Shown piece after piece: positions 2,619 to 37,912 of a DNA stretch of 64,000 bases. The position numbers and the translations under genes are program-made. Below the pieces are notes generated by a model. It did not search any database. It had not been told where the DNA came from and was given only the letters and a program-made list of their open reading frames with translations. Numbering within the stretch: position 1 is the stretch's first letter; each line of letters starts with the position of its first letter. Location of the stretch: NCBI GenBank assembly GCA_951812955.1, contig OX638340.1, positions 2,432,001 through 2,496,000 of the forward strand, given 5' to 3'. This DNA is from an uncultured Gemmatimonadota bacterium. GTDB lineage: Bacteria; JAAXHH01.

Positions 2619-2757
2619 GATGGTCTCCTCGGGGCCGGGCCGGTGAAAGGGGTTGATGGAAAGGACCAGCGCAACGGAGAAAAGGGCCGGCGCGAAGGGC
2701 CGATGAAACGTGCCGGGGCGCACCAAAACGCATCAACGAGCGCCTGAAAACCCATAA

Positions 2758-2775
2758 AACAGACATTTGTCTGTT
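2758..2775. promoter_or_regulatory. Inverted repeat AACAGACA-TT-TGTCTGTT (ACAG-N8-CTGT) in the lexA / DUF4143-ATPase divergent promoter; candidate LexA operator
   Basis: 8-bp perfect arms separated by 2 nt. It lies ~140 nt upstream of the lexA ATG and ~120 nt upstream of the divergent 2897 gene. It contains CTGT/ACAG tetramers as in CTGT-N8-ACAG SOS boxes, but in the opposite arrangement. Confidence 0.4.
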
Positions 2776-2896
2776 ATGTCAAGCGGTTTTTAGGAAAATT
2801 GGGGATTGGGAACGGGTGAGAACCATTTCACTAACCGCAAGTTCTTTTCAAAATTACAGCTTGCTTATTGATACAATTAACGTTAAATATATTAAT

Positions 2897-4057
2897 ATGA
2901 TGGCAGATTTTTACATTCCTCAAGCGCAACTCACCACACTCGCCCACCTGGTTACACCGGGCAAAGTCGTTGTGGTATACGGACCCAGAAGGGTGGGCAA
3001 GACCACGCTGATCAAGCGTTACATGCGAGAACACGACCCCGACGCCCTGCTCGTAACGGGGGAGGACATCGTGGTCAGGGAGTACCTCGAGAGTCAGTCC
3101 CTGGCCAAATTGACGTCCTTCGTCGGCCGTCGCCGTACACTGATCATCGACGAAGCTCAGCATATCCGGCAAATCGGGCTGAATCTCAAGCTGATCGCCG
3201 ACCACGTCGAAGGGCTTAAGATCATCACCACAGGCTCGTCCTCCTTCGACCTGGCCAATCAGACTGGCGAGCCCCTGACCGGCCGCAAGTATACCCTGCT
3301 GCTTCTGCCACTGGCCCAGTTGGAACTCCAGGAAACCGAATCCGCGCACCAGACACGAGCCCATCTCGAACTTCGGATGATTTACGGGTCGTATCCCGAA
3401 GTCGTCCTCATGGAGTCAAACGAAGACCGGCAACTCTATATCAAGGAACTGATCGCTTCCTATCTATTCAGGGACATACTCCAGCTGGAGGGCATACGCC
3501 ATGCGGACAAGCTGCTCAGGCTGCTGCAACTGGTCGCCTTCCAGATCGGACGCGAGGTATCGACTTCCGAACTGGGCACCCAGTTGGGCATGAAAGCGAA
3601 CACCGTGGATCGATATCTAGACTTACTTGAGAAATCCTATATCCTATACAGCCGCCGCGGGTTCAGCCGCAATCTGCGTAAGGAAATAACCAAGAGCCGA
3701 CGGTATTACTTCTACGACAACGGCATCAGGAACGGGTTGATCAACAACTTCAACCCACTTGCAATGCGGGATGACGCGGGGGAGTTGTGGGAAAGCTACA
3801 TCCTGGTGGAACGATTGAAGCACAACCTCTACAACGGACACCTGGCGGAAAGCTACTTCTGGCGTACATACGATCGCCAGGAAATCGACCTAGTTGAGGA
3901 GTGGGGAGGTCAACTACTTGCCACGGAAATGAAATGGACCGCCAGATCACACCGGGCGCCCGGCGCCTGGCGCAAGGCCTATCCCGAAAGTTCGTTCCAG
4001 GTTGTTCATCCTGAAAACTATCTCAGTTTTATTTCTGAATCACCGGCCGCACCCTAA
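2897..4057 (+). CDS. AAA-superfamily ATPase with C-terminal DUF4143 domain (COG1373-like)
   Basis: Walker A GPRRVGKTT, Walker B LIIDEAQ. The C-terminal region is typical of the ATPase+DUF4143 family. The start is placed at MMADF (2897) after an AT-rich promoter-like stretch. Confidence 0.7.
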   Translation: MMADFYIPQAQLTTLAHLVTPGKVVVVYGPRRVGKTTLIKRYMREHDPDALLVTGEDIVVREYLESQSLAKLTSFVGRRRTLIIDEAQHIRQIGLNLKLIADHVEGLKIITTGSSSFDLANQTGEPLTGRKYTLLLLPLAQLELQETESAHQTRAHLELRMIYGSYPEVVLMESNEDRQLYIKELIASYLFRDILQLEGIRHADKLLRLLQLVAFQIGREVSTSELGTQLGMKANTVDRYLDLLEKSYILYSRRGFSRNLRKEITKSRRYYFYDNGIRNGLINNFNPLAMRDDAGELWESYILVERLKHNLYNGHLAESYFWRTYDRQEIDLVEEWGGQLLATEMKWTARSHRAPGAWRKAYPESSFQVVHPENYLSFISESPAAP

Positions 4058-4077
4058 ACGAACAACAGATCCTTCGT

Positions 4078-4557
4078 TCAACCGGTCTGCGCAATGACCG
4101 TTTCCGGCTCGTGATCGACCGCGAAGTTCACGGACCTGGCGATAAAGCACATGGCATGGGCTTTTTCGTGCAGGCGCTCCGCGGTTTCCGCATCCCTCTC
4201 CGCCGTTATCGTAACACGCGGCCTGAGGGTCACGCGTCCGAACTGGCCCGAGCCGTCCGGATTCAGTTCCATCACGCCTTCCGCCTGGTCTTCGTAGGCC
4301 GTCACCACGACTTTGTTCACCGTGCAAAGATGCAGATACCAGAGCATGTGGCAGGCCGAAAGAGAAGCCAGCAGCATGTCCTCCGGATTATGGCGGGCAG
4401 CGTCGCCCAGGTAGCCAGGATCCGCGGAACCCTTGAGAACCGGCTTGCCCTTGCATGCGATGTCGTAATCACGCGTATAGCCCCTGTACGTGCTCGAACC
4501 GTTGCCCAGATTGCCCTTCCACACAACACCGACCTCGTACGTATGCTGCTTGTTCAT
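4078..4557 (-). CDS. osmC: OsmC/Ohr-family peroxiredoxin-like protein
   Basis: 159 aa. Has OsmC-like conserved Cys pairs (…LSACHML…, …HAMCFIARS…) and the family's size. Confidence 0.75.
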   Translation of the reverse strand: MNKQHTYEVGVVWKGNLGNGSSTYRGYTRDYDIACKGKPVLKGSADPGYLGDAARHNPEDMLLASLSACHMLWYLHLCTVNKVVVTAYEDQAEGVMELNPDGSGQFGRVTLRPRVTITAERDAETAERLHEKAHAMCFIARSVNFAVDHEPETVIAQTG

Positions 4558-4597
4558 GATGCCTCCAGGTTTCTAGTCAATTACGGTGCCTGAACTT

Positions 4598-4620
4598 AAC
4601 TGATCGGTACACGATCAGTT
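4598..4620. promoter_or_regulatory. Inverted repeat AACTGATC-N7-GATCAGTT upstream of osmC
   Basis: Perfect 8-bp arms seen in the AT-rich intergenic region ~40 nt upstream of the osmC start. Could be an operator for an OhrR/MarR-type regulator. Confidence 0.3.
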
Positions 4621-4796
4621 TCAATCGTAGTAACTCACCTGGTGCCATGCAACAGGTTAAAACCTGTGGTGCATCCGGTAGCCTTAAGACCGGGTTGGAT
4701 GTAACGGACAGAAAATTGGAAGAAACTTCTTGTTTGGTCAGATAATTACTTTAATTTTCTGACAATAATTGATACTGAGCATATCGCATATCACGG

Positions 4797-5429
4797 GTGT
4801 TTTCAATGAGCAGTATGGCCGCTAAAATCATGCGTCGGGTGTCCGCTCATCCCACCGGAAAGTGGGTTTGTACACCGAAGGATTTCCTGGACTTCGGGAG
4901 CAGGGAGGCCATTGACCAGGCTCTGTCGCGCCTGGCCAGATCCGATCGGCTGCGGCGCATAGGCCACGGCCTCTATGACAGGCCCAGGTTCAGCAACGTA
5001 CTGAGACGTCCTGCGCCGGTTGATCTGGATGCTGCAGTTAGCGCACTGGCAAGGAGGGACGGCGTTCAGATCCTGCCGGATGGCATGGCCTCTGCGAATC
5101 AGTTGGGACTCACGAACGCCGTACCGGCCAAAGTCAGCTTCGTAACAGATGGCTACTCCAGGACACTTAAAATTGAAGGAAGGACGGTCCGTTTTCGACA
5201 TGCGAGCCCGAGCGTTATGAAATGGGCCGGAAGACCGTCAGCTTCGGTGGTTCAGGCGTTGCGATGGCTTGGTCCCGCCGCGGCCGAGGACGCACGGGTC
5301 CTGTCGACCTTGAGCCGAACCCTCTCGGAAGAAGTGAAGGTCGATTTATTAAGAAACATACGCGATCTGCCGGGATGGGTATTGCCGCTGTTGCGAGAAA
5401 TAACCACTGAACATCACGACGCAATATGA
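4797..5429 (+). CDS. abiEi: AbiEi-family antitoxin/transcriptional regulator (type IV TA)
   Basis: The N-terminal region (…AIDQALSRLARSDRLRRIGHGLYDRP…) resembles AbiEi wHTH antitoxins. It is followed 7 nt later by an AbiEii-like ORF. Confidence 0.55.
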   Translation: MFSMSSMAAKIMRRVSAHPTGKWVCTPKDFLDFGSREAIDQALSRLARSDRLRRIGHGLYDRPRFSNVLRRPAPVDLDAAVSALARRDGVQILPDGMASANQLGLTNAVPAKVSFVTDGYSRTLKIEGRTVRFRHASPSVMKWAGRPSASVVQALRWLGPAAAEDARVLSTLSRTLSEEVKVDLLRNIRDLPGWVLPLLREITTEHHDAI

Positions 5430-5436
5430 AAATGGA

Positions 5437-6174
5437 TTGCGTATCTTTCCTCTCCCTTCCTGTCCAGGACAGACGGGACCTCTTCGAGTCAGCGGCAAAC
5501 TGAAAACCGCACTTTCGAGACGAATCGACGAGATCGTCGAAGGAGGTCTTGTCATTCCAGATGAAAGCGACGTCGACGGCCAGACGCTTCTCGTGGAGTA
5601 CCCTACACTTTACCCTGGAGACAGTGTCGCCTACGTGGCGCCACGGGTACGAATCGAGGCAGGGGCGAGATCGGCGCTGGATCCCAACCTGACCCGTACC
5701 ATCAAACCATTCATCGCGGATGAGGTGCGAGACTTGTCTTTGGCAGTGGAAAACATCCGCGTTATCGCACCAGATCGCACGCTCTGGGAGAAGCTGTTGA
5801 TCCTGCATGGGTTGTACTGCGGATATCGGGACGCACAGCGTCTACCGGCAGACAGAGATCGGATATCCCGCCACTACTACGATGTTGCCATGATAACGGA
5901 GACCGAGTCCGGCAGGGCCGCTCTATCCAACCTTGAATTGATGGATTCAGTTCGTAAACACAACCTTATTGCGTTTCGACAGGCCTGGAAGAAGTTCGAA
6001 GAGGCCGTACCTGGACGGGTGAAACTGGTTCCTCAGTTGGAACTGCACATGCTGATCGAGCGGGACTATGAAGCCATGCAGGACATGATCCTGGGTGACG
6101 TCCCGAATTTCAGATGGATCGTGGACCAATTGATGCATGCCGAAGCCATTGTCAATGGAACTACGAGAAGTTAA
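5437..6174 (+). CDS. abiEii: AbiEii/AbiGii-family nucleotidyltransferase toxin (DUF1814), TTG start, possibly N-terminally degenerate
   Basis: …IRVIAPDRTLWEKLLILHG… and …RHYYDVAMI… are typical DUF1814 C-terminal motifs. The ORF begins with TTG. The canonical N-terminal GGTAL-type motif is not obvious (GKLKTAL instead). Confidence 0.55.
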   Translation: MRIFPLPSCPGQTGPLRVSGKLKTALSRRIDEIVEGGLVIPDESDVDGQTLLVEYPTLYPGDSVAYVAPRVRIEAGARSALDPNLTRTIKPFIADEVRDLSLAVENIRVIAPDRTLWEKLLILHGLYCGYRDAQRLPADRDRISRHYYDVAMITETESGRAALSNLELMDSVRKHNLIAFRQAWKKFEEAVPGRVKLVPQLELHMLIERDYEAMQDMILGDVPNFRWIVDQLMHAEAIVNGTTRS

Positions 6175-6298
6175 CGTTCATGAATGCCAGGACGGCAGCA
6201 CTATCTCTAATTACACGTCATGATACCTTGACGGTCGTGCTCGATTTCGACGTCAGACAACACGAAGATCAGTCGGACCAATATGAAGGAGCTCCAAC

Positions 6299-6916
6299 AT
6301 GGCAACCCGGCGAGAACTTGCCTTTCCCGTCGAATCTCAGGAAGCCGCTGAACTCGCAATCGAAGATGACCGCACCGGTATCATCCTCGATCCGCTTCGC
6401 TGGCGTCTCCTTGAGATCCTGGGAGCGGGAAAGTCGGTGACGGAGATTTCTGAAGCGCTTGATGTTACGGACGCCCGGGTGCTGTACCACGTGCAGAGAC
6501 TGGCACAGACGGGAGTCGTGCATCTGGAGGATGATGCGGCGGCAGATCCCCGGGAATGGCGGTGTCTGCCCGCGGCGGCAGTGATTAGCGTACAGGAGGA
6601 GCAGGAGGCGGGCAGGTCATCCGGGCAGGAGGACAGACAGGCACAAGTGGCCGTCCCGGAGGCAGTGGCCGGCCAGTTTAACCAGGCTTTTCGCGAAGCG
6701 GCGGAAGGGATGTACGGACCGTCCTTCCAGATGTCCGTCAACCACAACCGCGCGCGGCTGTCAGAAGCCCAGGCCGCCGAATTCAACCGTAGGCTGCTTG
6801 CGCTCATCGAAGAGTACTTCCCTCCCGGAAAAGGAGACCGGTCGGGCGTCAAGTACGGTTTCCACGGCGTGCTAACACCGATCGATCTTCATCCGCTTGG
6901 GGATGCCGAGGGATAG
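6299..6916 (+). CDS. ArsR-family HTH transcriptional regulator with C-terminal extension
   Basis: …ILDPLRWRLLEILGAGKSVTEISEALDVTDARVLYHVQRLAQTGVV… is an ArsR/SmtB-type HTH. At 205 aa it is longer than the minimal ArsR. Confidence 0.6.
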   Translation: MATRRELAFPVESQEAAELAIEDDRTGIILDPLRWRLLEILGAGKSVTEISEALDVTDARVLYHVQRLAQTGVVHLEDDAAADPREWRCLPAAAVISVQEEQEAGRSSGQEDRQAQVAVPEAVAGQFNQAFREAAEGMYGPSFQMSVNHNRARLSEAQAAEFNRRLLALIEEYFPPGKGDRSGVKYGFHGVLTPIDLHPLGDAEG

Positions 6917-9321: not shown

Positions 9322-9723
9322 TCACTGCCGGTTTTCAACGGCTTTCCGCCGCACCTCTTCACTCACCAGAACATCCGCGATGATTGCCACGATGTAGAAC
9401 TTGCCTTCCAACAGGTGCTCGTTGCTGAAAATGGGTTCCAGTTTTATCCATCTTCGAAGGTTCAGGTTCCCCCGGACCGTGTTGTATATAATGTCGTAAA
9501 ACTTCTGCGTGTCGTCAAACACCCAGGCTTCCGTGAAAATGATCCAGAACCCGATTTCTTCGGGAATGCCGTCCCAGTCGTTTGCCACCGCCCAGTTAAT
9601 CTCGATCGCCGGGTCGCTGTCGTACTTTATGGACTTCGATTCCGTGCCCATGACGATGCGGATTTGCAGATCCATATCGTTGATCTGGTTGAGCACGCCG
9701 TTCACGTCCTCGATAATTGCCAT
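9322..9723 (-). CDS. Hypothetical protein (acidic, AT-richer codon usage), first gene of the octaheme cytochrome operon
   Basis: 133-aa ORF ending 7 nt before the octaheme cytochrome start. Its GC is visibly lower than its neighbours. No recognisable motifs. Confidence 0.4.
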   Translation of the reverse strand: MAIIEDVNGVLNQINDMDLQIRIVMGTESKSIKYDSDPAIEINWAVANDWDGIPEEIGFWIIFTEAWVFDDTQKFYDIIYNTVRGNLNLRRWIKLEPIFSNEHLLEGKFYIVAIIADVLVSEEVRRKAVENRQ

Positions 9724-10791: not shown

Positions 10792-11733
10792 ATGCATGGC
10801 GCCGAGAACGATATTCCATTTGAAGGCGAGGGGACTCATACAGGCGGGCCGGACCGGGCTGTTGACGATACGATCCGGCTGAACTGGCGCGAGAAGCTGG
10901 TTGAAGTCGGCCTGATGATGGTAATGTTCACGTGCGGTATGCTGATCGGAATGTTCGTCATCATAGCTTCTCTGCTTACCATGCGAAGTACATTCGAGCA
11001 GTTGGCCCCGGGATTCATGGAAGTAGGTTCGATTCCGCTCATCATTCTGGTCGTCGTGGCCGTGATCGTCGGGAATATCTGTTCGTTCAGCTGCGCTCCC
11101 TACCTCATACGTCTCTTCTTTCGGGGCTACGAGTTGAAGGACGAGCGGATCGACCGCGCTTTGGATCACCTGATTTCCGTGACCGGGATGGAAATCAGGG
11201 CCGAACGGATCTACGCCATAAAGGGCAGGACGGCCAACGCCGTCGTGGCCGGCCTCTTCCGGAAGGGTCAGTACATCTTCTTTACCAACAGGCTTCTGGA
11301 GAGAATGAGAGAAGGAGAGATCATGGCGATCCTGGCGCACGAACTGGCCCATGTGCGGCACCGGCACATGCCGAGGATGATGCTGGGCATCGTGCTATGG
11401 ACCCTCGGCATCCAGGTATTCTTCTGGCTGATTGGCTTCCAGGTTTACTTCGAATCGATCGAAGAATCCTGGAAAATGTGGGTGTATGGCGGAATAAATG
11501 CCTTGAACTTCTACCTGCTTGTTTTCCTCGTTCTGTTCCCGCAGTCGAGGCGTCACGAATACGAGGCGGATGAGGCCGCCGCCCGGTGGGTGGGCATAAG
11601 CCAGTACAAGCAGGCCCTTTACCGGTTGCATCAATTGAATGACCAACTGAAACCACCGAGGAAGATCCTGTCGAAGCTAAGTACCCATCCGACGCTTCAG
11701 CAGAGGCTGGAGCGGGTGGGGAATCTGGAATAA
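10792..11733 (+). CDS. M48-family (Ste24/HtpX-type) zinc metalloprotease, copy A
   Basis: Two N-terminal TM helices, then HELAHVRHRH (HExxH), two more TM helices, and a downstream EYEADE third zinc ligand. ~55% identical over its length to the 16245..17192 protein. Confidence 0.8.
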   Translation: MHGAENDIPFEGEGTHTGGPDRAVDDTIRLNWREKLVEVGLMMVMFTCGMLIGMFVIIASLLTMRSTFEQLAPGFMEVGSIPLIILVVVAVIVGNICSFSCAPYLIRLFFRGYELKDERIDRALDHLISVTGMEIRAERIYAIKGRTANAVVAGLFRKGQYIFFTNRLLERMREGEIMAILAHELAHVRHRHMPRMMLGIVLWTLGIQVFFWLIGFQVYFESIEESWKMWVYGGINALNFYLLVFLVLFPQSRRHEYEADEAAARWVGISQYKQALYRLHQLNDQLKPPRKILSKLSTHPTLQQRLERVGNLE

Positions 11734-11799
11734 CGTGTGACTGGTGTTTCAGCGTGCTATCCGCGTTTGTAAGGAAGGTTACAGGACGTGTATACGGAC

Positions 11800-13023
11800 T
11801 CACTCCATGTTCATCGCATCCACCGGGCTCAGCTGCGAAGCCTTCAAGGCGGGATATATTCCGGCACATAGACCTATTGCCAGTGAGATCGCCAGCGACA
11901 AGAGGATATTGGAAACCGACGTACCAGTCGTGAAAGTGAGATCCAACACCTGATTCAATACGAACGAGAAAACCGATCCAAGGCCCAGTCCCAGCAATAT
12001 CCCCAGTAACCCCCCTAAAGCACTGATACCTATGGCTTCCAGCGTGAATTGATTCACGATATCGACGTGTCTGGCTCCTACTGACTTCCTAATACCTATT
12101 TCCCGCCTTCGTTCCGTTACGGAGACCAGCATCATATTCATGATCCCGATTCCACCCACCATCAGTGAGATGCCCGCCACGGCGGCAATCGCCGACTTAA
12201 CGGCGTTAATCACACCTCCTATCTGGTCCATTGCGTTTTTTCCGCTGACTATGTCAAATCCGGGCGCATCACCATGGATTGTCTTCAAGGCTGCCTCAAT
12301 GTCATCCACCGCAATTTCCATGACACTCGAATCCACTACCTTGATGGTCAAAAGGTCGAAGCCTTCATGGCCAAGCATCCTTTTCTGGACCGTCGTTATC
12401 GGAACGAAGACCCGGTTGCCCCAACTTTCATTGAAAACAATCTTTGGCTTCATGACGCCGATCACGGCAAATCTCTGACCATTCAGTTTCACTTCCTTGC
12501 CGACCGGATTGGTATCGTCAAACAATCTAGCGGCCAGTTCATCGCCCAGTACACATACTTTTCGCCAGCGCTTGACGTCGCGGTCGGTAATGAATCGACC
12601 CGTGGAAACCGACCACTGGTACATCTCCGGAAATGAAGGCGTCGTGCCGTACAACATCCCTCCATGCGACGTTTTTGCGAATCTGAGATCTACATTCAAT
12701 GTCGCGGCGGGGACCAATTGGCGCACGGCGCTCGATCTTCTCCCGATTTCCAGCATATCCTGCCAGACAAGATGCTCGTAATCGGATACAGGCATCCAAC
12801 TTCCTTCCCTATTTTCGTATCTCGATGGACTCACCCACACCATGGAGCCGCCACGTACGGATTCGAATTCATCCATCACCATGTCGTGAAGCCCCTCTCC
12901 AATCACGATGATGCCTGTTACAGCGCCAATGCCGACCGCAATCCCCAGCAGCGTCAGGACCGAACGCAGCCTGTAGTGAACGAGATTGGTAAACACCGTG
13001 TGGACATGGTGCGCTAAAGACAT
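11800..13023 (-). CDS. MacB/FtsX-type ABC transporter permease (YknZ-like), no fused or adjacent ATPase
   Basis: N-terminal TM1 ([18 protein letters not shown]), a large periplasmic domain, and three C-terminal TM helices with the FtsX motif region (…[14 protein letters not shown]…). No Walker motifs. Confidence 0.8.
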
Positions 13024-13045
13024 AGACGACAGGGTCCGTAGAGGA

Positions 13046-14260
13046 CTATTGGTGTTTCGATTTCAGCGCGATATGAACCGCTCTTGCATCCGCTGCGATG
13101 TGTGCTCCAGGTTCGATACCGGACAGAATCTCCACATATTCAGTCGATTCAATTCCGATCTCGACCATGGTGGATTCCAGGTATTCTTCCGGACATTTCG
13201 ACATACCAGGGTCCATCGAAGTACAACGATAAACCACGTACGGCTTGCCGGGCACCGACCCAGTAGATGCTGTTTCCTTCTGTTCAGTGGCTATACCTAC
13301 GTAATCACCCATTTCCATGACCGAAGATGCAGGCGCAAGCAGCGAGCCTTCATTCTTCTCCAACACGATGTCGATATCGCAGGACATTCCCTGCTGCAAA
13401 TCCAGCGATGGATTCGATATCACGATTTCGGCATCGAACGTTACAAGCGCACTCCCGGGTTTCCGCACACCGATAGGCGCCAACCGCTCAACATGCCCGC
13501 TGTACAATGTGTCCGGGTAGGCATCGACACGAATCCGTACTTCCTGTCCAGGCCTGACCCTGCCTGCGTCAATTTCCCCAATGGCCGATTTGACGATCAT
13601 TCTGTCCGGATCGCCAATATGAAACATCTCCGTACCGCCGGTATACGAGGAGGTGCCCGATGCTACGACCTCGCCCGTTTCCACCATGCGGGCAACGACG
13701 ATGCCGTTCAAGGGAGACAGGATCCTCACGGCATCATGCGTTCTGTTGGAATCCACCTCAACATTAACCTTCAGTTCAAGTATTTTGAGTTCGAGTTCCG
13801 CCATGTTGAGATTATGATTGGCCTTGGTTTTTTCAATCCTTGCCTTGTCGAATTCCGCAGACGATATCAGGGATCTCTCATGTAATTCACGCTTTCTTTT
13901 AAAGGAGATCTCTTGTTCTGACAGATCTATTCGAGCGCCTTCAACTCTGGCGCGCTGCCGGGACAACTGAAGGGACTGAGACGGATCCGGCTCTATCACG
14001 GCAAGGACATCCCCCTTTGATACCGTATCCCCTACATCGGCGTGAATATGCCTGATTTCCCCGGATATGGTGGGTTTGACCATGACGGTCCTGACAAACT
14101 GGATCGTACCTGTCTCCACCAGGATATCGGAGATCGTTCCATGTTGAACCTGGAGTATTGGGAACGAGGCAACCCGGACCGTGGAACTGTAAACAAAGTA
14201 CAGTAGAACGGCTACGAGAATGCATGCCGATACGCAGACAATGACTATGCGTTTTTTCAT
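13046..14260 (-). CDS. HlyD/MacA-type periplasmic adaptor (membrane fusion protein, YknX-like)
   Basis: N-terminal anchor [22 protein letters not shown], a coiled-coil segment ([19 protein letters not shown]…[12 protein letters not shown]), and barrel/lipoyl motifs (…VKPTISGEI…[13 protein letters not shown]). Confidence 0.8.
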
Positions 14261-14281
14261 GTCAGCGGTGATTTCCAGGAA

Positions 14282-15013
14282 TTACACGTAAACGGTACCA
14301 AGGTTCTCCATGGTCCTGCGAATGACAATCCACATGCACCACACTAGTCCCAACGCGAACCATGTGAGTATAACCGATCCCTGGAAAGTCCGTGCAAGAC
14401 CCAACCCCAGCAGGTAAAGAAACCAAATACCGAAAAAGTCGACACCTGTAAGGAACAGGCCCGGGAGGGTTTCGAGGTCTGCATCGTCGAGCAACACACC
14501 AGGATGGATAGCCGGATCTAGCGACCCCCAAAGCAGAACCAGCGTGGTTTTGACGACTGTTTCGGGTACGAGGACAAGCAAGGCGTAGCCGGTAATCGGC
14601 AGAACCTTGTTGTACGGCAGGAGCTTACCGAAGATCAATTCTCCGCTGTGTTTCCCTACAACCGACCACGCGACAAGCATAAGGCAGACGCTGGCCGGCA
14701 TGATTAAAAGACCGGCGAGTTGCCTATGGTCGAATTTCGAAGCCTCGCGCAGGATAATAGATTGCTGAAACATACTGAGATTCGAATAGGACTGGAGTTC
14801 CATTTCGATCAACGCCCGTTCCGTATCCAGCGCAACCGGCAAAGTTACTATCCCGGCGATCAGTACGACCGACACGATAACGATCAGAATCAGGATCGAC
14901 TCAGAGGCGGACTGTTCAGTTTCAAGATCCGCAAATGCCCTCCCGGGACTGTAATAGACTCGTAGCCATCGCCTGGCATATCTTCCCATATCTATTGACG
15001 CGCTCAAGGACAT
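14282..15013 (-). CDS. Yip1-domain family membrane protein (YknW-like)
   Basis: The N-terminal …RVYYSPGRAFADLE… followed by 5 hydrophobic helices is the bacterial Yip1-domain pattern. It sits directly upstream of the HlyD and FtsX genes, as in B. subtilis yknWXYZ. Confidence 0.55.
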   Translation of the reverse strand: MSLSASIDMGRYARRWLRVYYSPGRAFADLETEQSASESILILIVIVSVVLIAGIVTLPVALDTERALIEMELQSYSNLSMFQQSIILREASKFDHRQLAGLLIMPASVCLMLVAWSVVGKHSGELIFGKLLPYNKVLPITGYALLVLVPETVVKTTLVLLWGSLDPAIHPGVLLDDADLETLPGLFLTGVDFFGIWFLYLLGLGLARTFQGSVILTWFALGLVWCMWIVIRRTMENLGTVYV

Positions 15014-16224
15014 AGATCTCCCATGATGACCAGATGGTAGTAGCTGTGTCCGCCACCGGACCAGAATGGACTATTCCAGGGCCAGAACCTCCACCAGATT
15101 GGTTTGGAACGGGTATATGCACCTTGGCGAAAACTCTCCAGGAAGGTACTGATGTGATGTACCGTGCTCGTGGAAAGATGCCTGCCGACTCTCTTGGGAT
15201 GGGATTCCACGCCGAGGTAAGAACGAATCATAAGGCTGTGTTCATCGATTGGAAGCGCATCGACATTCTCGACGTACCAATTGAACACGTAGTAGAAGTG
15301 GTTTATGAGGAAGTACTCAACGTTAGAAACATAGAAAACGGAAATGCTCGAGTCGTGGGCTTCAGCGTAAGAACCGATGGCCCTCAACGTCTTCTCGCCC
15401 GCGAAGTTTCCCACGACGGGAATGATCAGGTTCCTGTGATGCAGGCGCTTCACGAACCTGAATGTATCTTCGGTAAACAAGAAACTGGCGAATTCTCCCT
15501 CCACAGTCGTACCTGTCATCAGGTCTTTGAACGAAGGATAGGATAACCCGTTGCCCAGTCGTGTTTCAGCGTATGTAATCGAAAGCTGTTTTTCGTAAAA
15601 CGATCGGTATATGTAGCGCATCCTGTCGAGATCGTACCGATCTTTGATCCCATACATGCCTACTTCCCGACTGAGCCGCCTCCAATTCTGTTTAAAAAAC
15701 AGTGAGTCGGCCGTGGTCGACGATTCGATGTATTCCAGGACTTCCGTAACGGAAGCGGTTTTATCCGGTAATCCGTTCAAAGCCAATCCGACTTCCCGGT
15801 TATGTCTACTGAACAGCAGCATCAGGAAGGATGTCCGGTCCCGGGCCAGGGTAAAAAGGGCTTTGTAGAGGAGATGCTGAAGCAGGTTTTCACGTCGGAT
15901 GTCGACGACAAATGCGATTTCCGGTCTCGTAGCAGCGATGTAGGAGAAGTTCTGTTCCGTACCGACGCCGATATAGACGCCGCCGCGTTTTCCCAGTTCG
16001 ATTACGGTCGGGACAACGTGCAGGTAGGACGATTCATTGGAAACGAAGTTGTCGCCGGGAAAGTGACCGGGATCTTCGGAGAACGCAGTCATGATCCTGG
16101 CGAATTCGGACAGCGCAAGGGAGTCCGGCAACGCCCCGTAAGATGGGAAGCGCAGGTCAGTCAGCGCGCCGATGGTCAGTAGCAGTATGACAACTCGAAT
16201 CAACTTCATCGGTTTTACATCCAT
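15004..16224 (-). CDS. Secreted protein of unknown function
   Basis: Signal peptide MKLIRVVILLLTIGALT. 406 aa, no motifs I can assign. Translationally coupled (overlap) to the Yip1 gene. Confidence 0.5.
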   Translation of the reverse strand: MDVKPMKLIRVVILLLTIGALTDLRFPSYGALPDSLALSEFARIMTAFSEDPGHFPGDNFVSNESSYLHVVPTVIELGKRGGVYIGVGTEQNFSYIAATRPEIAFVVDIRRENLLQHLLYKALFTLARDRTSFLMLLFSRHNREVGLALNGLPDKTASVTEVLEYIESSTTADSLFFKQNWRRLSREVGMYGIKDRYDLDRMRYIYRSFYEKQLSITYAETRLGNGLSYPSFKDLMTGTTVEGEFASFLFTEDTFRFVKRLHHRNLIIPVVGNFAGEKTLRAIGSYAEAHDSSISVFYVSNVEYFLINHFYYVFNWYVENVDALPIDEHSLMIRSYLGVESHPKRVGRHLSTSTVHHISTFLESFRQGAYTRSKPIWWRFWPWNSPFWSGGGHSYYHLVIMGDLCP

Positions 16225-16244
16225 TCCATCTGCATTTGGTTCGT

Positions 16245-17192
16245 CTATTGCGCGTCCAACCTTGACACGCGGTCGAGACGGTTCTGCATCGTGGGGTGGG
16301 TCAGAAGTACTCTAACAAATCTCGGTGGTGGCTTTAAATTGTCATTGACTTGATGAAGACGGTAGAGCGCCCGTTTGTATTGCTCCGTGCCCACCCATTT
16401 TGCCGCCGTAGCATCTGCTTCGTATTCGTTACGCCTCGATAGCGGGTAAATGACCAGAAACATGAGAAGCCACACGTTCACGGCATTTAAAAGCCCGTAC
16501 GTCCACATTTTAAAAGACTCATCCATTGCATCGACATATGCACTGAAATCTAGCAGATACAGGAAAGCCTGCATCCCGCAGACCCACATAAATGTAGCCA
16601 ACTGCATCTTGGGAAGATGCCTGTGACGAACATGGGCCAATTCGTGGGCGAATATTGCCAAAATCTCCTCTTCGTTCGCTTTCGCCAGAAGTTTGTCCGT
16701 AAAGAAGATGTACCTGTTTTTGCGGAAAAGCCCAGTTACCATCGCGTTGGCAGTCCTGCTCTTGATGGTGTACAGGGTTTCTGCCGCAATGTTCATATCG
16801 ACGGACGATATCAGCTTCCCGACTGACCGATCCAGGCGATCGTCCCGTAACTCGTATCCACGGAAGATGAGACGTATCAGATATGGAGAACACAACCATG
16901 CACAGGCGTTCCCTACGGTTGCCGACAGGATGACCAGCAACACAATCGTTAAGGAACCTTGGTCCAATAGACCCGGAACTCCCTGAACAATCATGTCATC
17001 CGCGGTTAACAGAATGCTTAAGAACACGAATACCGCGATCAATATGCCCACCAGGGTCACACTCATGTTCAACCCGATTTCGACCAGTCTGTCGCGCCAG
17101 GTCAACCGGATTGGTTCATCTTTAATCGATGAAGCGCCGCCGGCTACTTCATTTATACGGTGTGTAGGTTCGACCATTATTTCCTTCTTCAA
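16245..17192 (-). CDS. M48-family (Ste24/HtpX-type) zinc metalloprotease, copy B
   Basis: HELAHVRHRH and NEYEAD motifs. Same topology as copy A and clearly paralogous to it (RLTWRDRLVEIGL…PYLIRLIFRGYELRDDRLDR…). Confidence 0.8.
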   Translation of the reverse strand: MKKEIMVEPTHRINEVAGGASSIKDEPIRLTWRDRLVEIGLNMSVTLVGILIAVFVFLSILLTADDMIVQGVPGLLDQGSLTIVLLVILSATVGNACAWLCSPYLIRLIFRGYELRDDRLDRSVGKLISSVDMNIAAETLYTIKSRTANAMVTGLFRKNRYIFFTDKLLAKANEEEILAIFAHELAHVRHRHLPKMQLATFMWVCGMQAFLYLLDFSAYVDAMDESFKMWTYGLLNAVNVWLLMFLVIYPLSRRNEYEADATAAKWVGTEQYKRALYRLHQVNDNLKPPPRFVRVLLTHPTMQNRLDRVSRLDAQ

Positions 17193-17199
17193 ATCAGCG

Positions 17200-17850
17200 T
17201 TATGACATAACGGCTTGTACCAGGCCGTTTAGCGCGACGTATGCCAGGATCACGCCGACTGCTTTGAACCTGGGCATCAAGCAGACCCTGTGCACCGCTT
17301 CGATGGCAAAAGCGACCACCAGGGTCAAAGCAATATACCGACCGTATCGAATCCACTTAAGCAACCCGATATCCTGCATCTTCGTGATCTCGCCGGGCAA
17401 TTGATCGATCGTGGCCAGGTTCGACAGTCCGACATAGACCATCTGGTCTGAAAACGCAAGCATGAGAACGACCGCCATGATCGAATACACTGTAACCGGG
17501 GTGTATGCGACACCCAGCCATCCAAACAGCGCGCGATGACGACGTCTACTGTTCAATAGCGCAACAACGATCATTACAAACAGCCAACCGAACACGAAAA
17601 TCACGATTTCGCCCAATGTGACGCCCAATATCATGGTTATGAACATAACTGAGAATAACTGTGCATATGTTTCGGTAAGATGATCCGGTATTTGTCCTGC
17701 AACTGACCTGAAAGTCAGAAAAAGTACGATCCCGTTCATAAGCAAGTATATGACAAACATGCCGATGCCCGTCGAGAGCGGTTCGGTTACACTGATTGAT
17801 ACCAGCCTGTCGGATGCCCTGCGTGGAATTTCCATTTTCTGTCCGTTCAA
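17200..17850 (-). CDS. Polytopic membrane protein (possibly Yip1-like), hypothetical
   Basis: 216 aa with 5-6 hydrophobic helices. It follows the SpoIIM-like gene with a 4-nt overlap. Confidence 0.45.
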   Translation of the reverse strand: MNGQKMEIPRRASDRLVSISVTEPLSTGIGMFVIYLLMNGIVLFLTFRSVAGQIPDHLTETYAQLFSVMFITMILGVTLGEIVIFVFGWLFVMIVVALLNSRRRHRALFGWLGVAYTPVTVYSIMAVVLMLAFSDQMVYVGLSNLATIDQLPGEITKMQDIGLLKWIRYGRYIALTLVVAFAIEAVHRVCLMPRFKAVGVILAYVALNGLVQAVMS

Positions 17851-18518
17851 TTGATTTTGTTCGCTATTTGTCCAGTGACAAAGGTTTCTATAATCGAAGC
17901 CACCGTGATCAGAAGGAATCCGGTGACGAGTCTGCGTACGTTCAAGGCCAACCTATCCGAATCTATGAGCCATGTATCGAACTTGAGTTTTTGGCAAAAG
18001 AGGACCAGACCTTCGCATCCCACAGCGCCGAAAAACACAAACCCCGCCAACTCAATCACGCCATGGGGTAGAATCAAAGCGGCTATGTGGTATATCGAAG
18101 CACCGGAATCAACCGCAGAAAGCGTAGACCATGCCACGATAGTTCCTGTCCAGCCCAATATCACAACACTGACCAATCCAAAGGACAGAAGGCCCAATAG
18201 TATTTTCATGGAAACGAGGAAATTGTTGCCAATAATGAAACGCCATTCATCCCCACCGTCCAAAAAGGGACGTGAATCCAGCATGAGGGTGGAGCTACCC
18301 GGATCTGTTGGTTTATTCTCAATCATATCCAGGGGCATTGCCGCTCCAACACCCAAGCCGACGATGACAGAAGCAAAGGAAATTAAAATGGGTAGTTTGC
18401 TTGGTTTGCGCGTTGACATAGATCCCACACTAGGTATCATCCATAAATTCCGAGGAAAGGATGGAGGCCATTTTCGGCCTCCATCCATCGTACTTACCAG
18501 CTTGTTAAATTCCAGCAC
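17847..18518 (-). CDS. SpoIIM/DUF95-family integral membrane protein
   Basis: 223 aa with multiple TM helices. Its overall pattern resembles the stage II sporulation protein M / DUF95 family. Its start overlaps the 3' end of the peptide gene by 14 nt. Confidence 0.45.
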   Translation of the reverse strand: MLEFNKLVSTMDGGRKWPPSFPRNLWMIPSVGSMSTRKPSKLPILISFASVIVGLGVGAAMPLDMIENKPTDPGSSTLMLDSRPFLDGGDEWRFIIGNNFLVSMKILLGLLSFGLVSVVILGWTGTIVAWSTLSAVDSGASIYHIAALILPHGVIELAGFVFFGAVGCEGLVLFCQKLKFDTWLIDSDRLALNVRRLVTGFLLITVASIIETFVTGQIANKIN

Positions 18519-18789
18519 CTATAAACACGGCGCCAACACCGGTTCCAATGCCAACGCTGGCCACGAGACCATAGCCGGCTGCTGTCAGCCAACCAATTGT
18601 TCCACCACCAGCCAATCCACCCAGTGCAACACCGCCAACCAGGGACGCATTGGAACCCCACAAGCAGTAAGCGAGGTTCGGCGACGCTGCGATGCCCGGT
18701 GTTTCAGCCAGCGGCGAACTGGCCGTTGAGTTGACGCTCGCGCCTGCGATCAGGGCGAACATGAACACTGAGAGAATGAGTTTTTTCAT
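18505..18789 (-). CDS. 94-aa secreted Gly/Ala-rich hydrophobic peptide precursor (bacteriocin-like / glycine-zipper-like)
   Basis: The ATG at 18789..18787 has a GAGGGG SD 9 nt upstream. Sequence: MKKLILSVFMFALIAGASVNS|TASSPLAETPGIAASPNLAYCLWGSNASLVGGVALGGLAGGGTIGWLTAAGYGLVASVGIGTGVGAVFIGAGI. It has a Sec-type signal, then a ~73-aa uncharged segment with repeated GxxxG motifs. Confidence 0.55.
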   Translation of the reverse strand: MKKLILSVFMFALIAGASVNSTASSPLAETPGIAASPNLAYCLWGSNASLVGGVALGGLAGGGTIGWLTAAGYGLVASVGIGTGVGAVFIGAGI

Positions 18790-19114
18790 AATGATTTGTT
18801 CCCCTCGATTTTGGTATATATCGAACCAATGTGGTTTATCCTTCGAAAGACTCTGTAATGCCGTTAACCTCCTTTCCTCTCTCAAATTAGATTCCATCCG
18901 CCGTTCTCATTCGATGCGACGTCATTCTCTGCCCAGGTACCAGGAAACTCGGTTGCAGGTCTCGGAATGCGCAGTTCCGAGAGAAAGCGTCGATCTCTTA
19001 ACGGGGACTCGACCTAATGTTAAAACTGAATCCAGTAACTGTGACCGCAGCGATCTATCACAATTAGTCTCCGTGAATCCCCGGTTCTCGTAGACAATCT
19101 CTATTTCCTGCAAT

Positions 19115-19143
19115 AAAAAAGCCCGGCGATCGTACCGCCGGGC
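19115..19143 (-). terminator. Rho-independent terminator after the large secreted-protein gene
   Basis: The minus-strand RNA folds as GCCCGGCG-GUACGAU-CGCCGGGC followed by UUUUUU. It lies between the 19275 gene end and the peptide-operon promoter region. Confidence 0.6.
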
Positions 19144-19274
19144 GTTCACATATCCCATTCGCATTCCGATAAACCCAGTATTTTACCTCATCCCCTCCTT
19201 AGCCTCAATCTCGTCTCGTATTCTTTTTAAATCGCTGGATATTGTCTTACAGACTACGGCAGGATTCTTCTTTA

Positions 19275-21884
19275 CTACTCCCCGTCCCCATCCCCCACCG
19301 CATCCAGCAGCGCTTCCCGCGTCATGCCATCGGGAGGCGTGTTTAGGCCCGATTCCTCGCCCGGGTCGGCGACGAGCCAGATGCCGCGCTCGAGGGCGTA
19401 GCCATCTCGTTCGGAGGCCTTTTGGAGGAGTTCCTGCAGGTCTTCGCCATCCATCAGGCCCAGCAGCCCGACGGGGATCACCCGGGCGGAGATTCCCCTT
19501 TCGCGCAGGAAGCCCGCGTACCAGTCGGGAGGACGTTCATAGGAGAACACGAGAAAGGGGCGTTCCGGCGTGCCGGCGCCCCGCCAGAATCCCAGGCGAT
19601 ACCAGTCCGGCCGCAGGGAGCGGACGAAGGCGCCGTGGCGCAGCCGGGGATTGATTTCGTCCATGGACTGCCGGTACAGCGTGCCGAGGCGCTCCGCGTT
19701 GGCTTCCTGGAGCTGGATATAGGTCTCGAGGTATCCCGACTTGAGCAGCCACTCGAACCGGTCTTCCCGGTCCAGTCCCATGAGCGACCTGAATTCGTCG
19801 CCGTGGTACAGACCGTTCCGGACGAGATGCCGGATGAAGTACCGGAAATGCAGGTCGTCGAAGACGTCGGTCGCGGCATAGGCGTGCCGCGGACGCGTGA
19901 TATGGGGATCCCAGTCGTGCACGATGGCCTGCGGGGCCCCCTGGAGGCGGCTGTGCCGGGCGATGGCGCGGGCCGGCTCAAAGAGGTGGCGGTTCAGGTA
20001 TGCCATGTCGAGCCGGGAAGGCAGGTCGACGTCCTCCCCGCGGGCGTTCAGGGCGGCTGCGTAGTCGCCGGTGATCTCGCGCTCGCGAGGGGCGCTGACG
20101 CCGGCGTACCAGGCCGTCGGTGTGCCGCCCACGCGGCTGAGGATGGGCATGGCCCACGATTCGAAACGCACGTCGCCCGTCACCGCCGCGCCCCCGGTGT
20201 AACTGGCAGCCGGCGCCACGGTCCAAAGGAAGTCCATCCCGAGGCCGGGCAACGTTCCGGCGAGTTCGGACACGTGTTCATGCCGGCGGGCGATGAAATC
20301 CCAGACGCCTCGAAGCGGTACGGCATCCGTCGTGCCGGTAGAGAGGCCGGCGTCTGCCGAGTCGCCGGGACTGGGGCGGGCTTCGGCGTCCACGCTGGCG
20401 TCTGAGCCGGAACCCGGACCAGCGCCCAGCTCTGCACTTGAACCTGTGCCGGCTCCGGAACCCGTGCCGTCGCCTGTGCCCGCGCCGTCGCCTGTGCCCG
20501 CGCCGGGTCCGTCATCCGGACCGGACGCCGCGCTGCTGAGCACCCGGACCCGTTCGGGCGCCGCCGTCCTTATGGATACGTTGTTGAGGGAGAAATCCGG
20601 TTTCCGGTTGCCGGGCATCTGGGCCGTGGCATAGTCGTGTTCGGGAGACCAGTCTCCGGGGGAATCGACCAGCGCGCGGACGTAGCTCGCGAGTCCGTCC
20701 ATAAAATCATCCAGTCCTTCGAGATCGGCTTCCCGGGGGCGGATGCCCAGGGGCGGCAAGGGCCGGTCGAGCCCGGATAGCACCTGGCGGTCAACGGCAA
20801 GGACGAATCCCTCGTTCAGCCGGCCGGTCCGTCCCGCGGCCGCTACCGCCATGCGGCCGAAGGTCTCCTCGTCGCCTCGCATGGTTTCCAGGTCTTCGGC
20901 CGACCCGATCTCTTCCCGGATCTCCCGGTCGGCGAAAGCGGCGGCGATGATCTCCACCGGAACGCCCACCAGCGCGTATTCGGATCCCCAGCGGTTTCCG
21001 GACATGCGCACGGTCAGCGTGTCCTTCGCATCTGAAACGCCTTCCACCCTGCCCTTGAATCTCGCCGCGGTCCAGTCCACCGGCACGAGCCGATCCCGGT
21101 TCCGGTACTGCAGGCTGGTCCGCAGCTCCTGGTCGCCGCGCAGCAGCAGTTCGACGTCTTCTCCCGCAATCGCGTCCGCGGGGGAGATACGCAAGGTACG
21201 CCGGACTACGCGGTATTCGGGTTCGGGTTCGGGTGCGGGTTCCGGTTCGATCTCCTCTCCAGGGTCCGGCGCTTGAGGTTCCACGAGCAGCGGCTCGGCA
21301 CCGTCGCCCACGAGCAGCCGGGTGCCGGCGCGGGCGGCCACGCTGCCGTCCATGCCCCGCCCGACCGGGTGGCCGTCGGCAATTTCGAAATAGACCACGG
21401 GGTTCAGGACTGGACTGGTTTCGTGGTCGGCGTTCAGCGCGTGCAGGTTGATGTTCAGACGGGCCAAGATCTCGTTGAACTGATACCGGTCGTGGACGCC
21501 GGGATTGACCTTCCTCCGCTCGCTGTAGGGCCCGTCGGAGGGCATCGCCAGCACGAGCACTTTACCCCGCGACACGAAGTTGATGACCAGGTCCACTTCC
21601 TGGATGCTCATGCCCGGATCGCCGCCGCCCAGAAGCACGATGGCGTCGTAGTCCCGGGCGTCCCGTTCGACCATGGCCGGATAATACGGCCGGTAGTCGA
21701 CGTCGAACCCCGCTTCCGAGAACGCCTGTATCATCCCGGTGTGCTCTTCCGGATAGGCCATGGCGTATTCGACGACGAGCAGGCGGGGATCGCCGTTCGG
21801 CCCGGCGGACGGCTCCTGCCTCGCGCTTGCGGAGTAATTGGGCGCCAGGAATACAATCAGGCAGACAATCAGTTTGATTCGCAT
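19275..21884 (-). CDS. Large secreted protein of unknown function with Gly/Thr/Asp-rich repeat linker
   Basis: Signal peptide MRIKLIVCLIVFLAPNYSASA. 869 aa. The internal low-complexity repeat is GAGTGDGAGTGDGTGSGAGTGS. High GC. Confidence 0.6.
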   Translation of the reverse strand: MRIKLIVCLIVFLAPNYSASARQEPSAGPNGDPRLLVVEYAMAYPEEHTGMIQAFSEAGFDVDYRPYYPAMVERDARDYDAIVLLGGGDPGMSIQEVDLVINFVSRGKVLVLAMPSDGPYSERRKVNPGVHDRYQFNEILARLNINLHALNADHETSPVLNPVVYFEIADGHPVGRGMDGSVAARAGTRLLVGDGAEPLLVEPQAPDPGEEIEPEPAPEPEPEYRVVRRTLRISPADAIAGEDVELLLRGDQELRTSLQYRNRDRLVPVDWTAARFKGRVEGVSDAKDTLTVRMSGNRWGSEYALVGVPVEIIAAAFADREIREEIGSAEDLETMRGDEETFGRMAVAAAGRTGRLNEGFVLAVDRQVLSGLDRPLPPLGIRPREADLEGLDDFMDGLASYVRALVDSPGDWSPEHDYATAQMPGNRKPDFSLNNVSIRTAAPERVRVLSSAASGPDDGPGAGTGDGAGTGDGTGSGAGTGSSAELGAGPGSGSDASVDAEARPSPGDSADAGLSTGTTDAVPLRGVWDFIARRHEHVSELAGTLPGLGMDFLWTVAPAASYTGGAAVTGDVRFESWAMPILSRVGGTPTAWYAGVSAPREREITGDYAAALNARGEDVDLPSRLDMAYLNRHLFEPARAIARHSRLQGAPQAIVHDWDPHITRPRHAYAATDVFDDLHFRYFIRHLVRNGLYHGDEFRSLMGLDREDRFEWLLKSGYLETYIQLQEANAERLGTLYRQSMDEINPRLRHGAFVRSLRPDWYRLGFWRGAGTPERPFLVFSYERPPDWYAGFLRERGISARVIPVGLLGLMDGEDLQELLQKASERDGYALERGIWLVADPGEESGLNTPPDGMTREALLDAVGDGDGE

Positions 21885-37782: not shown

Positions 37783-37912
37783 GGGTTGCGGCTTCTCACG
37801 TTTCGTATCATCACCGGGTGATCCGGGCCGGAGCGCGCCGGTATGGGTTCCGGGCCGTAGAGCGAGTTCCGGGCCGTAGAGCGCCGGGCCACGGACCGTT
37901 TACCGGCCGATC

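Follow-up and report, generated by a model that had tools for sequence, protein, structure and literature searches.

A probable bacteriocin-type locus of circular-bacteriocin architecture with a polymorphic, putative specificity cassette in Gemmatimonadota

Circular bacteriocins are valued for their stability, and the removal of their leader and the joining of their ends are still unsolved according to the papers cited here. A typical cluster contains a precursor, one or more transporter proteins, a SpoIIM/DUF95 protein, an immunity protein and further hydrophobic proteins, with Yip1 proteins being common (PMC8659200). The DUF95 protein has been termed the 'class defining protein' (PMC11580447), and a 2026 study proposed it for both leader cleavage and circularisation (PMC13463998). 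An ATP-binding protein has been stated for all reported circular bacteriocin clusters, and the published in-silico range takes in Firmicutes, two Actinobacteria and one Thermotogae (PMC8534725). An M48 peptidase is encoded three genes downstream of the precursor in a few clusters, as in two of group 1 (PMC8659200), and it is the distinguishing hallmark of the altitudin S subgroup of Bacillales, where it occurs with Yip1, SpoIIM and ATP-binding cassette (ABC) subunits (bioRxiv 10.1101/2025.10.31.685828). The AS-48EFGH immunity operon consists of a membrane protein, an adaptor, a nucleotide-binding domain (NBD) subunit and a MacB-type permease, and parallels YknWXYZ (PMC5985334). Here we describe an eight-gene cluster in a 64,000-nucleotide stretch of an uncultured Gemmatimonadota bacterium (contig OX638340.1; the whole stretch is called the window). 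With a probability of roughly 0.6, we read this cluster as a bacteriocin-type production and self-protection system of circular-bacteriocin architecture, adapted to a diderm host.

This architecture has so far been described almost only in Gram-positive bacteria, and no paper in the literature library searched links circular bacteriocins with Gemmatimonadota. An earlier note on this DNA had proposed a bacteriocin-type production and immunity locus with a gene set known from no described system. The first part of this proposal is supported, and is strengthened by a conserved leader followed by a hypervariable core in the precursor, by a hairpin behind the precursor gene and by exchanged cassette types. 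The second part had to be given up: the combination of precursor, SpoIIM/DUF95 and transporter is a published hallmark (PMC8659200; bioRxiv 10.1101/2025.10.31.685828; PMC8534725), the pump matches that of AS-48EFGH (PMC5985334), and an annotated Bacillus thuringiensis plasmid cluster has much the same content. The latter, a cluster of the circularin A/uberolysin family, was reached by a weak tblastn match of the SpoIIM protein from the window. Its genes are ordered HlyD, ATPase, permease, Yip1, Yip1, circular bacteriocin gene, SpoIIM, a protein of 583 amino acids (aa) and a second ATPase. Comparing the SpoIIM profile with the SpoIIM protein of that cluster by hhalign gave a probability of 96.4% (E 1.3e-9) with LPHG..E in common, and the two permeases are 29% identical over their full length (E 4e-39). 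The Yip1 protein and the adaptor gave only weak matches to their counterparts there. In our data, gene content, gene order, the conservation pattern and cassette exchange were seen directly.

The cluster stands out from its surroundings by composition (feature positions are given in Table 1). The windowed guanine-plus-cytosine (GC) content is 0.46-0.55 across about 10.5-19.5 kb of the window and 0.61-0.72 on either side, and the eight minus-strand genes (11800-18789) have about 50% GC overall. The GC content at third codon positions (GC3) is 0.52-0.63 in these genes, compared with 0.78-0.88 in the flanking aconitase, GAPDH, hybrid histidine kinase, 869-aa gene and cytochromes; M48b, the convergent paralogue, lies between the two with 0.73. 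Intergenic gaps within the cluster are at most 23 nt (22 nt between adaptor and permease), except for the spacer that holds the hairpin. The windowed GC, the GC3 contrast and the positions of the open reading frames (ORFs) therefore bear out a lower-GC stretch, eight packed minus-strand ORFs at the places claimed earlier, and one operon-like unit with foreign codon usage. All earlier Pfam calls (SpoIIM, M48, Yip1, HlyD adaptor and MacB/FtsX) were confirmed by Pfam and NCBIfam, while the 406-aa 'secreted unknown' could be refined to a DUF7790 / LIC_10091-like protein. Two details of the layout had to be corrected. As M48a is the fourth of the eight genes and M48b converges on the 3' end, the operon is not bracketed by the M48 paralogues. 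The peptide and SpoIIM genes, taken to overlap, probably do not: the maximal SpoIIM ORF reaches 18518, and a gap of about 65-85 nt with a conserved hairpin lies there instead. At the other end, the strong terminator after the upstream 869-aa gene makes the cluster its own transcription unit and marks its 5' boundary.

The precursor shows the clearest division into constant and variable parts. Its ORF is open to 18897, and all orthologues begin at MKK (18789), which gives 94 aa. Residues 1 to about 25 form a nearly invariant Sec-type signal with KK, a hydrophobic core and A-x-A, as read by eye from the sequence. Among aligned orthologues there is an invariant boundary motif, TP..(A/I/V)YC(L/M), at about residues 36-43. 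From about residue 44 to residue 94 the peptide is a hypervariable, uncharged, Gly/Ala-rich hydrophobic core, and the core length comes to 51-69 aa, set by which cleavage site is assumed. Conservation in this variable half is limited to W67, scattered glycines and a GYG-like turn. Beyond the signal peptide, basic residues are lacking in the window peptide, and Glu29 of the pro-region is its one acidic residue. An exhaustive HMMER search found four true relatives among 1.84 billion representatives, and the peptide family is, on this evidence, a new one. By analogy, a leader that is conserved, joined to a core that varies, is the organisation of bacteriocin precursors and of precursors of peptides that ribosomes make and that are modified after translation (RiPPs). 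One database relative, P0278, has the leader and the boundary motif in common, but its C-terminal half is rich in Arg and Cys, which suggests that its precursor gene is frameshifted, being either inactivated or mis-assembled.

The regions on both sides of the precursor gene are also conserved. When the ten loci were aligned, the upstream region of about 330 nt showed a mean column identity of 74% with many invariant blocks, and was better conserved than the coding cassette. A perfect inverted repeat, TCTCGGAA-n6-TTCCGAGA, lies within it, as does a GAGGAAAGGAGG block. A single common fold for this leader was not supported by RNAalifold, with covariation being only weak, and Rfam gave no match for either the leader region or the hairpin; the region could be an operator or a structured leader. 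Directly after the peptide stop codon, all ten loci have a hairpin with a stem of 11-15 bp, and the stem sequence differs between cassette types. Compared with shuffled controls, its stability in the window has a z score of -4.3; the scores were -4.3 to -5.2 in four of the five loci tested, the window included, and -2.65 in L003 (relatives of the window locus are denoted by L and a number). The hairpin is likely an attenuator or an mRNA stabiliser that yields excess peptide transcript, which fits a structural gene whose product is made in abundance through differential expression.

A further argument comes from how the loci differ from each other. Against L003 and L006, the nucleotide identity of the window is 0.46-0.60 between about 18,650 and 17,000; in the 869-aa gene, and again from DUF7790 through M48b, it is 0.8-0.9. 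In these comparisons, promoter and signal peptide form an island of conservation beside the variable cassette, to which the N-terminal half of M48a also belongs. Grouping the loci by DUF7790, Yip1, the membrane fusion protein (MFP) and FtsX gave {window, L002, L086}, {L007, L169, L170, L171}, {L003, L006} and {L004}, which is compatible with the housekeeping genes. Grouping them by SpoIIM and the 216-aa protein gave the types A {window, L002, L086, L007}, B1 {L003, L169}, B2 {L006, L170}, C {L171} and D {L004}, with 38-55% identity of the cassette proteins between types. Thus L007, L169, L170 and L171 have MFP and FtsX proteins that are 90-96% identical, yet they carry three or four cassette types (SpoIIM 38-55%). 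The cassettes of L007, L169 and L170 are each closest to one in a different organismal group, and the type of L171 is unique. Even within the same sample, L170 and L171 have FtsX proteins 96% identical and SpoIIM proteins only 40% identical. Across the wider database, SpoIIM proteins form discrete classes by their identity to that of the window (80-100%, 54-63%, about 49% and 40-46%), and in-clade DUF7790 identities are mostly 78-92% with a small tail at 61-70%. This pattern is characteristic of a specificity cassette, either exchanged or maintained by balancing selection as toxin/immunity loci are.

Discrete cassette types that coexist in one sample and are shuffled among lineages would also be expected of a kin-recognition or signalling locus, where the co-varying membrane proteins would detect the secreted peptide as a cue specific to the strain, much as with pherotype or self-recognition alleles, and the peptide would be no toxin. 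The long and conserved regulatory leader would suit such a locus, as would the hybrid histidine kinase/response regulator found two genes upstream in most loci. Nevertheless, the cluster itself contains no regulator or kinase, and the nearby kinase is missing in L004 and L005. An uncharged, Gly-rich hydrophobic peptide of about 50-70 residues is unlike known pheromones, and the accessory genes are those of bacteriocin clusters. We therefore regard signalling as improbable and keep to a bacteriocin-type system.

The three cassette proteins downstream of the peptide each have recognizable features. The SpoIIM protein matches PF01944 at 52.4 bits (cut-off 26.9), has the invariant motifs LPHG..E and GCEG, and its gene directly follows that of the peptide in all 10 loci. 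The 216-aa protein has about 5-6 transmembrane (TM) segments; described earlier simply as a polytopic membrane protein, it is itself weakly Yip1-like, with a match of E 3.3e-4 that lies below the cut-off. Since it co-varies with the peptide core, it is a candidate specificity or immunity component. M48a matches PF01435 at 100 bits (both paralogues reach at least 96 bits), and H178, E179, H182 and E251, the HEXXH motif with its downstream Glu, are invariant in 26 sequences. It has an HtpX-like topology with four hydrophobic segments, lies three genes downstream of the precursor and is 53% identical to M48b. M48b is present without the cluster in L008 and missing in L004 and L005, so it is cluster-associated but separable. 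The M48a subfamily comprises about 74 proteins, every named one from Gemmatimonadetes, and the score falls from 304 to 67 bits at ordinary Ste24. Among 185,579 species-representative genomes it occurred in only 3, and a single metagenome contig carried it as well. Plasmid matches of M48a by tblastn were generic HtpX/M48 genes, and the one on a Geobacillus plasmid had no adjoining SpoIIM or precursor. The DUF7790 protein that follows begins with a signal peptide or anchor, and its Rossmann fold is of the class-I methyltransferase type. The protein was rejected as a marker of a wider conserved module, as members of about 40% identity stand alone in unrelated neighbourhoods.

The last three genes form a pump module. 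The Yip1 protein matches PF04893 at 30.4 bits (cut-off 28.6) and YknW_fam at E 4e-5, which is below the cut-off of that family. The adaptor matches RND_mfp at 117 bits, and Beta-barrel_YknX matches were found on its orthologues. The permease has MacB_PCD and FtsX domains, 4 TM segments and a 229-aa periplasmic domain, and lacks a nucleotide-binding domain. With Yip1, MFP and MacB/FtsX domains in this order, the proposed parallel of the last three genes to YknW/X/Z is upheld. None of the 10 loci has a counterpart of the NBD subunit, YknY or AS-48G. When the whole window was scanned for ABC ATPase motifs, only CcmA came up (37913-38758); it belongs to a cytochrome c maturation set on the minus strand (36377-38758, comprising CcmA, CcmB and an assembly protein of CcmC type) and has no relation to the cluster. 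In L001 (19604-20933) and L002 (19996-20933), a YknX-like adaptor (458 aa) and a 223-aa ABC ATPase lie beside an HTH_20 regulator about 4 kb beyond the cluster, with no permease visible in the nearby DNA examined. This pair was rejected as the missing NBD, as it is not conserved in other loci and is absent from the window.

Exact-sequence database look-ups gave no match for the window proteins; therefore, the genomic context was taken from homologues. Ten loci, with GAPDH identities from 99% to 82%, carry the same eight genes, identically ordered and at a shared chromosomal position. A metagenome scan contributed only one locus. The slot is flanked by aconitase, GAPDH, (the kinase) and an unknown of about 850 aa on one side, and by (M48b), PEMT and cytochromes on the other. 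The GC dip recurs at each relative's locus, which together with the shared position shows that the cluster is not a recent insertion. The cluster has kept its foreign GC3 across a divergence over which its downstream module tracks the phylogeny of the organisms. The locus clearly illustrates how a specificity cassette can stay polymorphic and foreign in composition within an otherwise stable chromosomal locus, and cassette types A to D are natural 'allele swaps' that map which proteins track the peptide core. The description as an accessory island needs qualification: the position is fixed in relatives down to 82% GAPDH identity and the GC is always low, while in L008 (OZ241920.1) the slot holds a restriction/defence island. 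There, a stretch of 43-46% GC replaces the cluster between the ~850-aa gene and M48b, with genes for HNH, HATPase_c_3, EcoRII-N/B3, an SNF2 helicase, Dcm, Vsr, EcoRII-C and a Sel1-repeat protein (10944-19435).

Could the cluster itself be an anti-phage or other defence system that sits in a defence-island slot? The EcoRII/Dcm/Vsr and SNF2/HATPase/HNH genes of L008 point in this direction, as does a lower-GC AbiE toxin-antitoxin insertion nearby in the window. PADLOC, however, gave no matches except a generic LolE-type TM match for the permease, and the products of the cluster are all envelope proteins plus a secreted peptide, which makes a defence function highly improbable.

The same clade-wide fixed position can be explained by an envelope maintenance operon. 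Here the small Gly-rich protein would be a membrane subunit or substrate, and an HtpX-like M48, SpoIIM/Yip1 proteins and a MacB/FtsX mechanotransducer would act in membrane-protein quality control or envelope remodelling, as in HtpX, FtsEX and LolCDE. M48a and M48b are HtpX-like with a probably cytoplasmic active site, the cluster has no dedicated ATPase or immunity gene, and the MacB family includes FtsEX and LolCDE (PMC5985334). A housekeeping role, however, predicts no hypervariable cassette swapped between lineages. The foreign GC3, the restriction to 3 of 185,579 species genomes, the replacement by a restriction island in L008, and an invariant leader joined to a variable mature part would all be unexpected as well. 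On balance, envelope maintenance is quite unlikely, and a bacteriocin-type system accounts better for the cassette.

If the cluster is such a system, its parts may work together as follows. The 94-aa precursor would be made in excess over the downstream genes owing to the hairpin behind its stop codon, and would cross the inner membrane by Sec via the conserved signal peptide. SpoIIM/DUF95 with M48a may then trim it at the invariant TP..YC(L/M) boundary or close by, and might also cyclise it. The product would be an uncharged, Gly/Ala-rich, membrane-active peptide of about 50-70 residues. The Yip1 protein, adaptor and MacB permease, as the presumed counterpart of AS-48E/F/H and YknW/X/Z, would be powered by an ATPase encoded elsewhere, and would clear the peptide from the membrane or periplasm of the producer or expel it across the outer membrane. 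The 216-aa protein, SpoIIM and M48a would set which peptide variant the cell makes and tolerates, so that the cassette would act as a specificity allele.

Table 1. Positions of the cluster features and their boundaries in the window
Feature	Position	Strand	Basis or remark
Intrinsic terminator of upstream 869-aa gene	19121..19143	minus	10-bp GC-rich stem then T run
Promoter/5' leader region, ~330 nt	18790..19120	minus	alignment of 10 loci
Precursor peptide, 94 aa	18505..18789	minus	orthologue-supported MKK start
Hairpin, perfect 11-bp stem, just past peptide stop codon	18459..18486	minus	
SpoIIM/DUF95 membrane protein, 190 aa from orthologue-supported ATG	17847..18419	minus	PF01944
Polytopic membrane protein, 211-216 aa ('216-aa protein')	17200..17850	minus	weakly Yip1-like
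M48a zinc metalloprotease, 310 aa	16245..17177	minus	PF01435
DUF7790 / LIC_10091-like protein	15004..16224	minus	
Yip1 / YknW / AS-48E-like membrane protein	14282..15013	minus	PF04893
Periplasmic adaptor, HlyD/MacA/YknX-type membrane fusion protein (MFP)	13046..14260	minus	Pfam + NCBIfam
MacB-type permease with FtsX C-terminal domain	11800..13023	minus	Pfam + NCBIfam
M48b, convergent paralogue of M48a	10792..11733	plus	
Hypervariable cassette: peptide core + SpoIIM + 216-aa protein + M48a N-terminal part	16900..18660	minus	approximate boundaries

Several observations weigh against a bacteriocin-type system of circular architecture. The host is an uncultured metagenome-assembled genome. The peptide has no Pfam or NCBIfam match even at E <= 10, and matches no known bacteriocin family in these databases. 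Circular bacteriocin cores have a compact, saposin-like fold of 4-5 helices; for the window peptide, the AlphaFold2 single-sequence model, with helices at 37-60, 65-78 and 88-91, is of too low confidence for use (predicted local distance difference test 53, predicted template modelling score 0.30). No ABC_tran domain was found in any cluster gene of the 10 loci, and the gaps of at most 23 nt leave no room for a small dedicated immunity gene, for which the 216-aa membrane protein may substitute. A profile comparison of this protein with the Bacillus Yip1 proteins gave no significant similarity. According to the positive-inside rule and the loop charges, the catalytic domain of M48a probably faces the cytoplasm, which is a poor fit with the processing of a Sec-exported peptide. 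For one circular bacteriocin, cyclisation is indicated inside the cell before export (PMC7132975), and this sits uneasily with a Sec leader. Finally, the clade-wide synteny exceeds that of most bacteriocin loci.

For these proteins, actual head-to-tail cyclisation of the peptide is possible but doubtful. A more specific and rather unlikely proposal is that the locus would represent the first circular-bacteriocin system of a diderm phylum in a minimal form, with Sec export, a cut at TP..YC, periplasmic ligation by SpoIIM/DUF95 with M48a and no dedicated ATPase, and with matched SpoIIM/membrane-protein/M48 alleles that define mutually incompatible peptide types in one population. If this were true, cyclisation would be uncoupled from ABC-driven export and DUF95 would be implicated as the cyclase, whose identity has long been in question.

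Some further features were noted around the locus. The secreted 869-aa protein (19275-21884, minus strand) has no Pfam domain and a Gly/Ser/Asp-rich low-complexity middle, and a gene of about 850/869 aa is kept upstream of the slot in all relatives, L008 included. It was rejected as a cluster member for its own terminator, its normal GC3 and its persistence in L008, where the cluster is missing. On the other side, a 133-aa ORF (9322-9723, minus strand) without a Pfam match has a GC of 0.51, a GC content at second codon positions of 0.29 and a GC3 of 0.74. Its conservation in L001, L002 and L007 is 88-98%, and L169-L171 likewise have a called ORF of equal size, between PEMT and the cytochromes or a regulator. 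The FtsX and M48b genes of L001 (14153-15375 and 15443-16380) were called as fragments of 48 + 360 aa and 162 + 141 aa, and are intact in the near-identical L002; either long-read assembly frameshifts or recent pseudogenisation would explain them. A second low-GC patch in the window (2500-6500, GC 0.50-0.58) codes for an AAA_14/DUF4143 ATPase at 2816-4057 and for an AbiE pair of antitoxin (DUF6088/AbiEi-like, 4797-5429) and toxin (AbiEii, 5437-6174). The patch is missing at the matching position in L001, L002 and L169-L171 and is therefore a genuine strain-specific insertion. Two relatives, L008 (6336-9608) and L171 (1-1514), have large Big_2 and leucine-rich-repeat proteins, one with a Peptidase_M66 match, and a Sel1-repeat protein close to the locus; such eukaryote-like repeat proteins may hint at a host-associated lifestyle.

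Placed beside the circular bacteriocin clusters of enterocin AS-48, circularin A/uberolysin and cerecyclin (cyc), the locus likewise has a precursor followed by SpoIIM/DUF95, Yip1 proteins, an adaptor, a MacB/FtsX permease and additional hydrophobic proteins. In circular bacteriocins, too, conservation is higher in the leader than in the remaining precursor, and a hydrophobic core ends in a hydrophobic or aromatic residue. Core size (51-69 aa) and neutral charge resemble those of subgroup II; circular bacteriocin cores are about 58-76 aa long, and the window core, whose length depends on the cleavage site, matches no precursor family. In contrast to them, the window cluster has no ATP-binding protein and no small immunity protein, its leader is a canonical Sec signal, and its core is extremely Gly/Ala-rich with one invariant Cys. 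Its DUF7790 protein has no precedent in bacteriocin clusters, and its host belongs to Gemmatimonadota.

A Sec signal instead of a double-glycine leader, and a small, hydrophobic, Gly-rich mature peptide, are also characteristic of Sec-dependent class II bacteriocins of the enterocin P type. Their loci usually consist of a structural and an immunity gene, and have no SpoIIM, M48 or MacB-type pump. With the altitudin S subgroup, the locus has in common the precursor, Yip1, SpoIIM, ABC transporter parts and M48. Altitudin S, however, has a 56-aa leader, a strongly cationic core of 76 aa (isoelectric point about 11, charge +13) and ABC ATPase subunits, whereas the window core is uncharged and an ATPase is lacking. 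The likeness of its M48 to M48a is at the family level, and the position of M48a is that seen in the two group-1 clusters (PMC8659200).

For the pump, YknWXYZ of Bacillus and AS-48EFGH of Enterococcus show the same order of Yip1-type protein, MFP and MacB/FtsX permease as the window. Both are linked to protection against an endogenous membrane-active peptide, and their NBD (YknY or AS-48G) is what all 10 loci here are missing. As in MacAB-TolC, the window adaptor could couple to an outer-membrane channel in a diderm host. In summary, the architecture is a known one, and what appears new by sequence comparison is the Gemmatimonadota host, the Sec leader, the lack of an ATPase, DUF7790, the peptide family and the exchangeable cassettes. 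As a stripped-down system, the cluster could allow the roles of DUF95 and M48 to be told apart from ABC export. A Sec leader and no ATPase in a phylum of Gram-negative type, far from the Firmicutes, would give the class of circular bacteriocins a wider taxonomic and mechanistic range.

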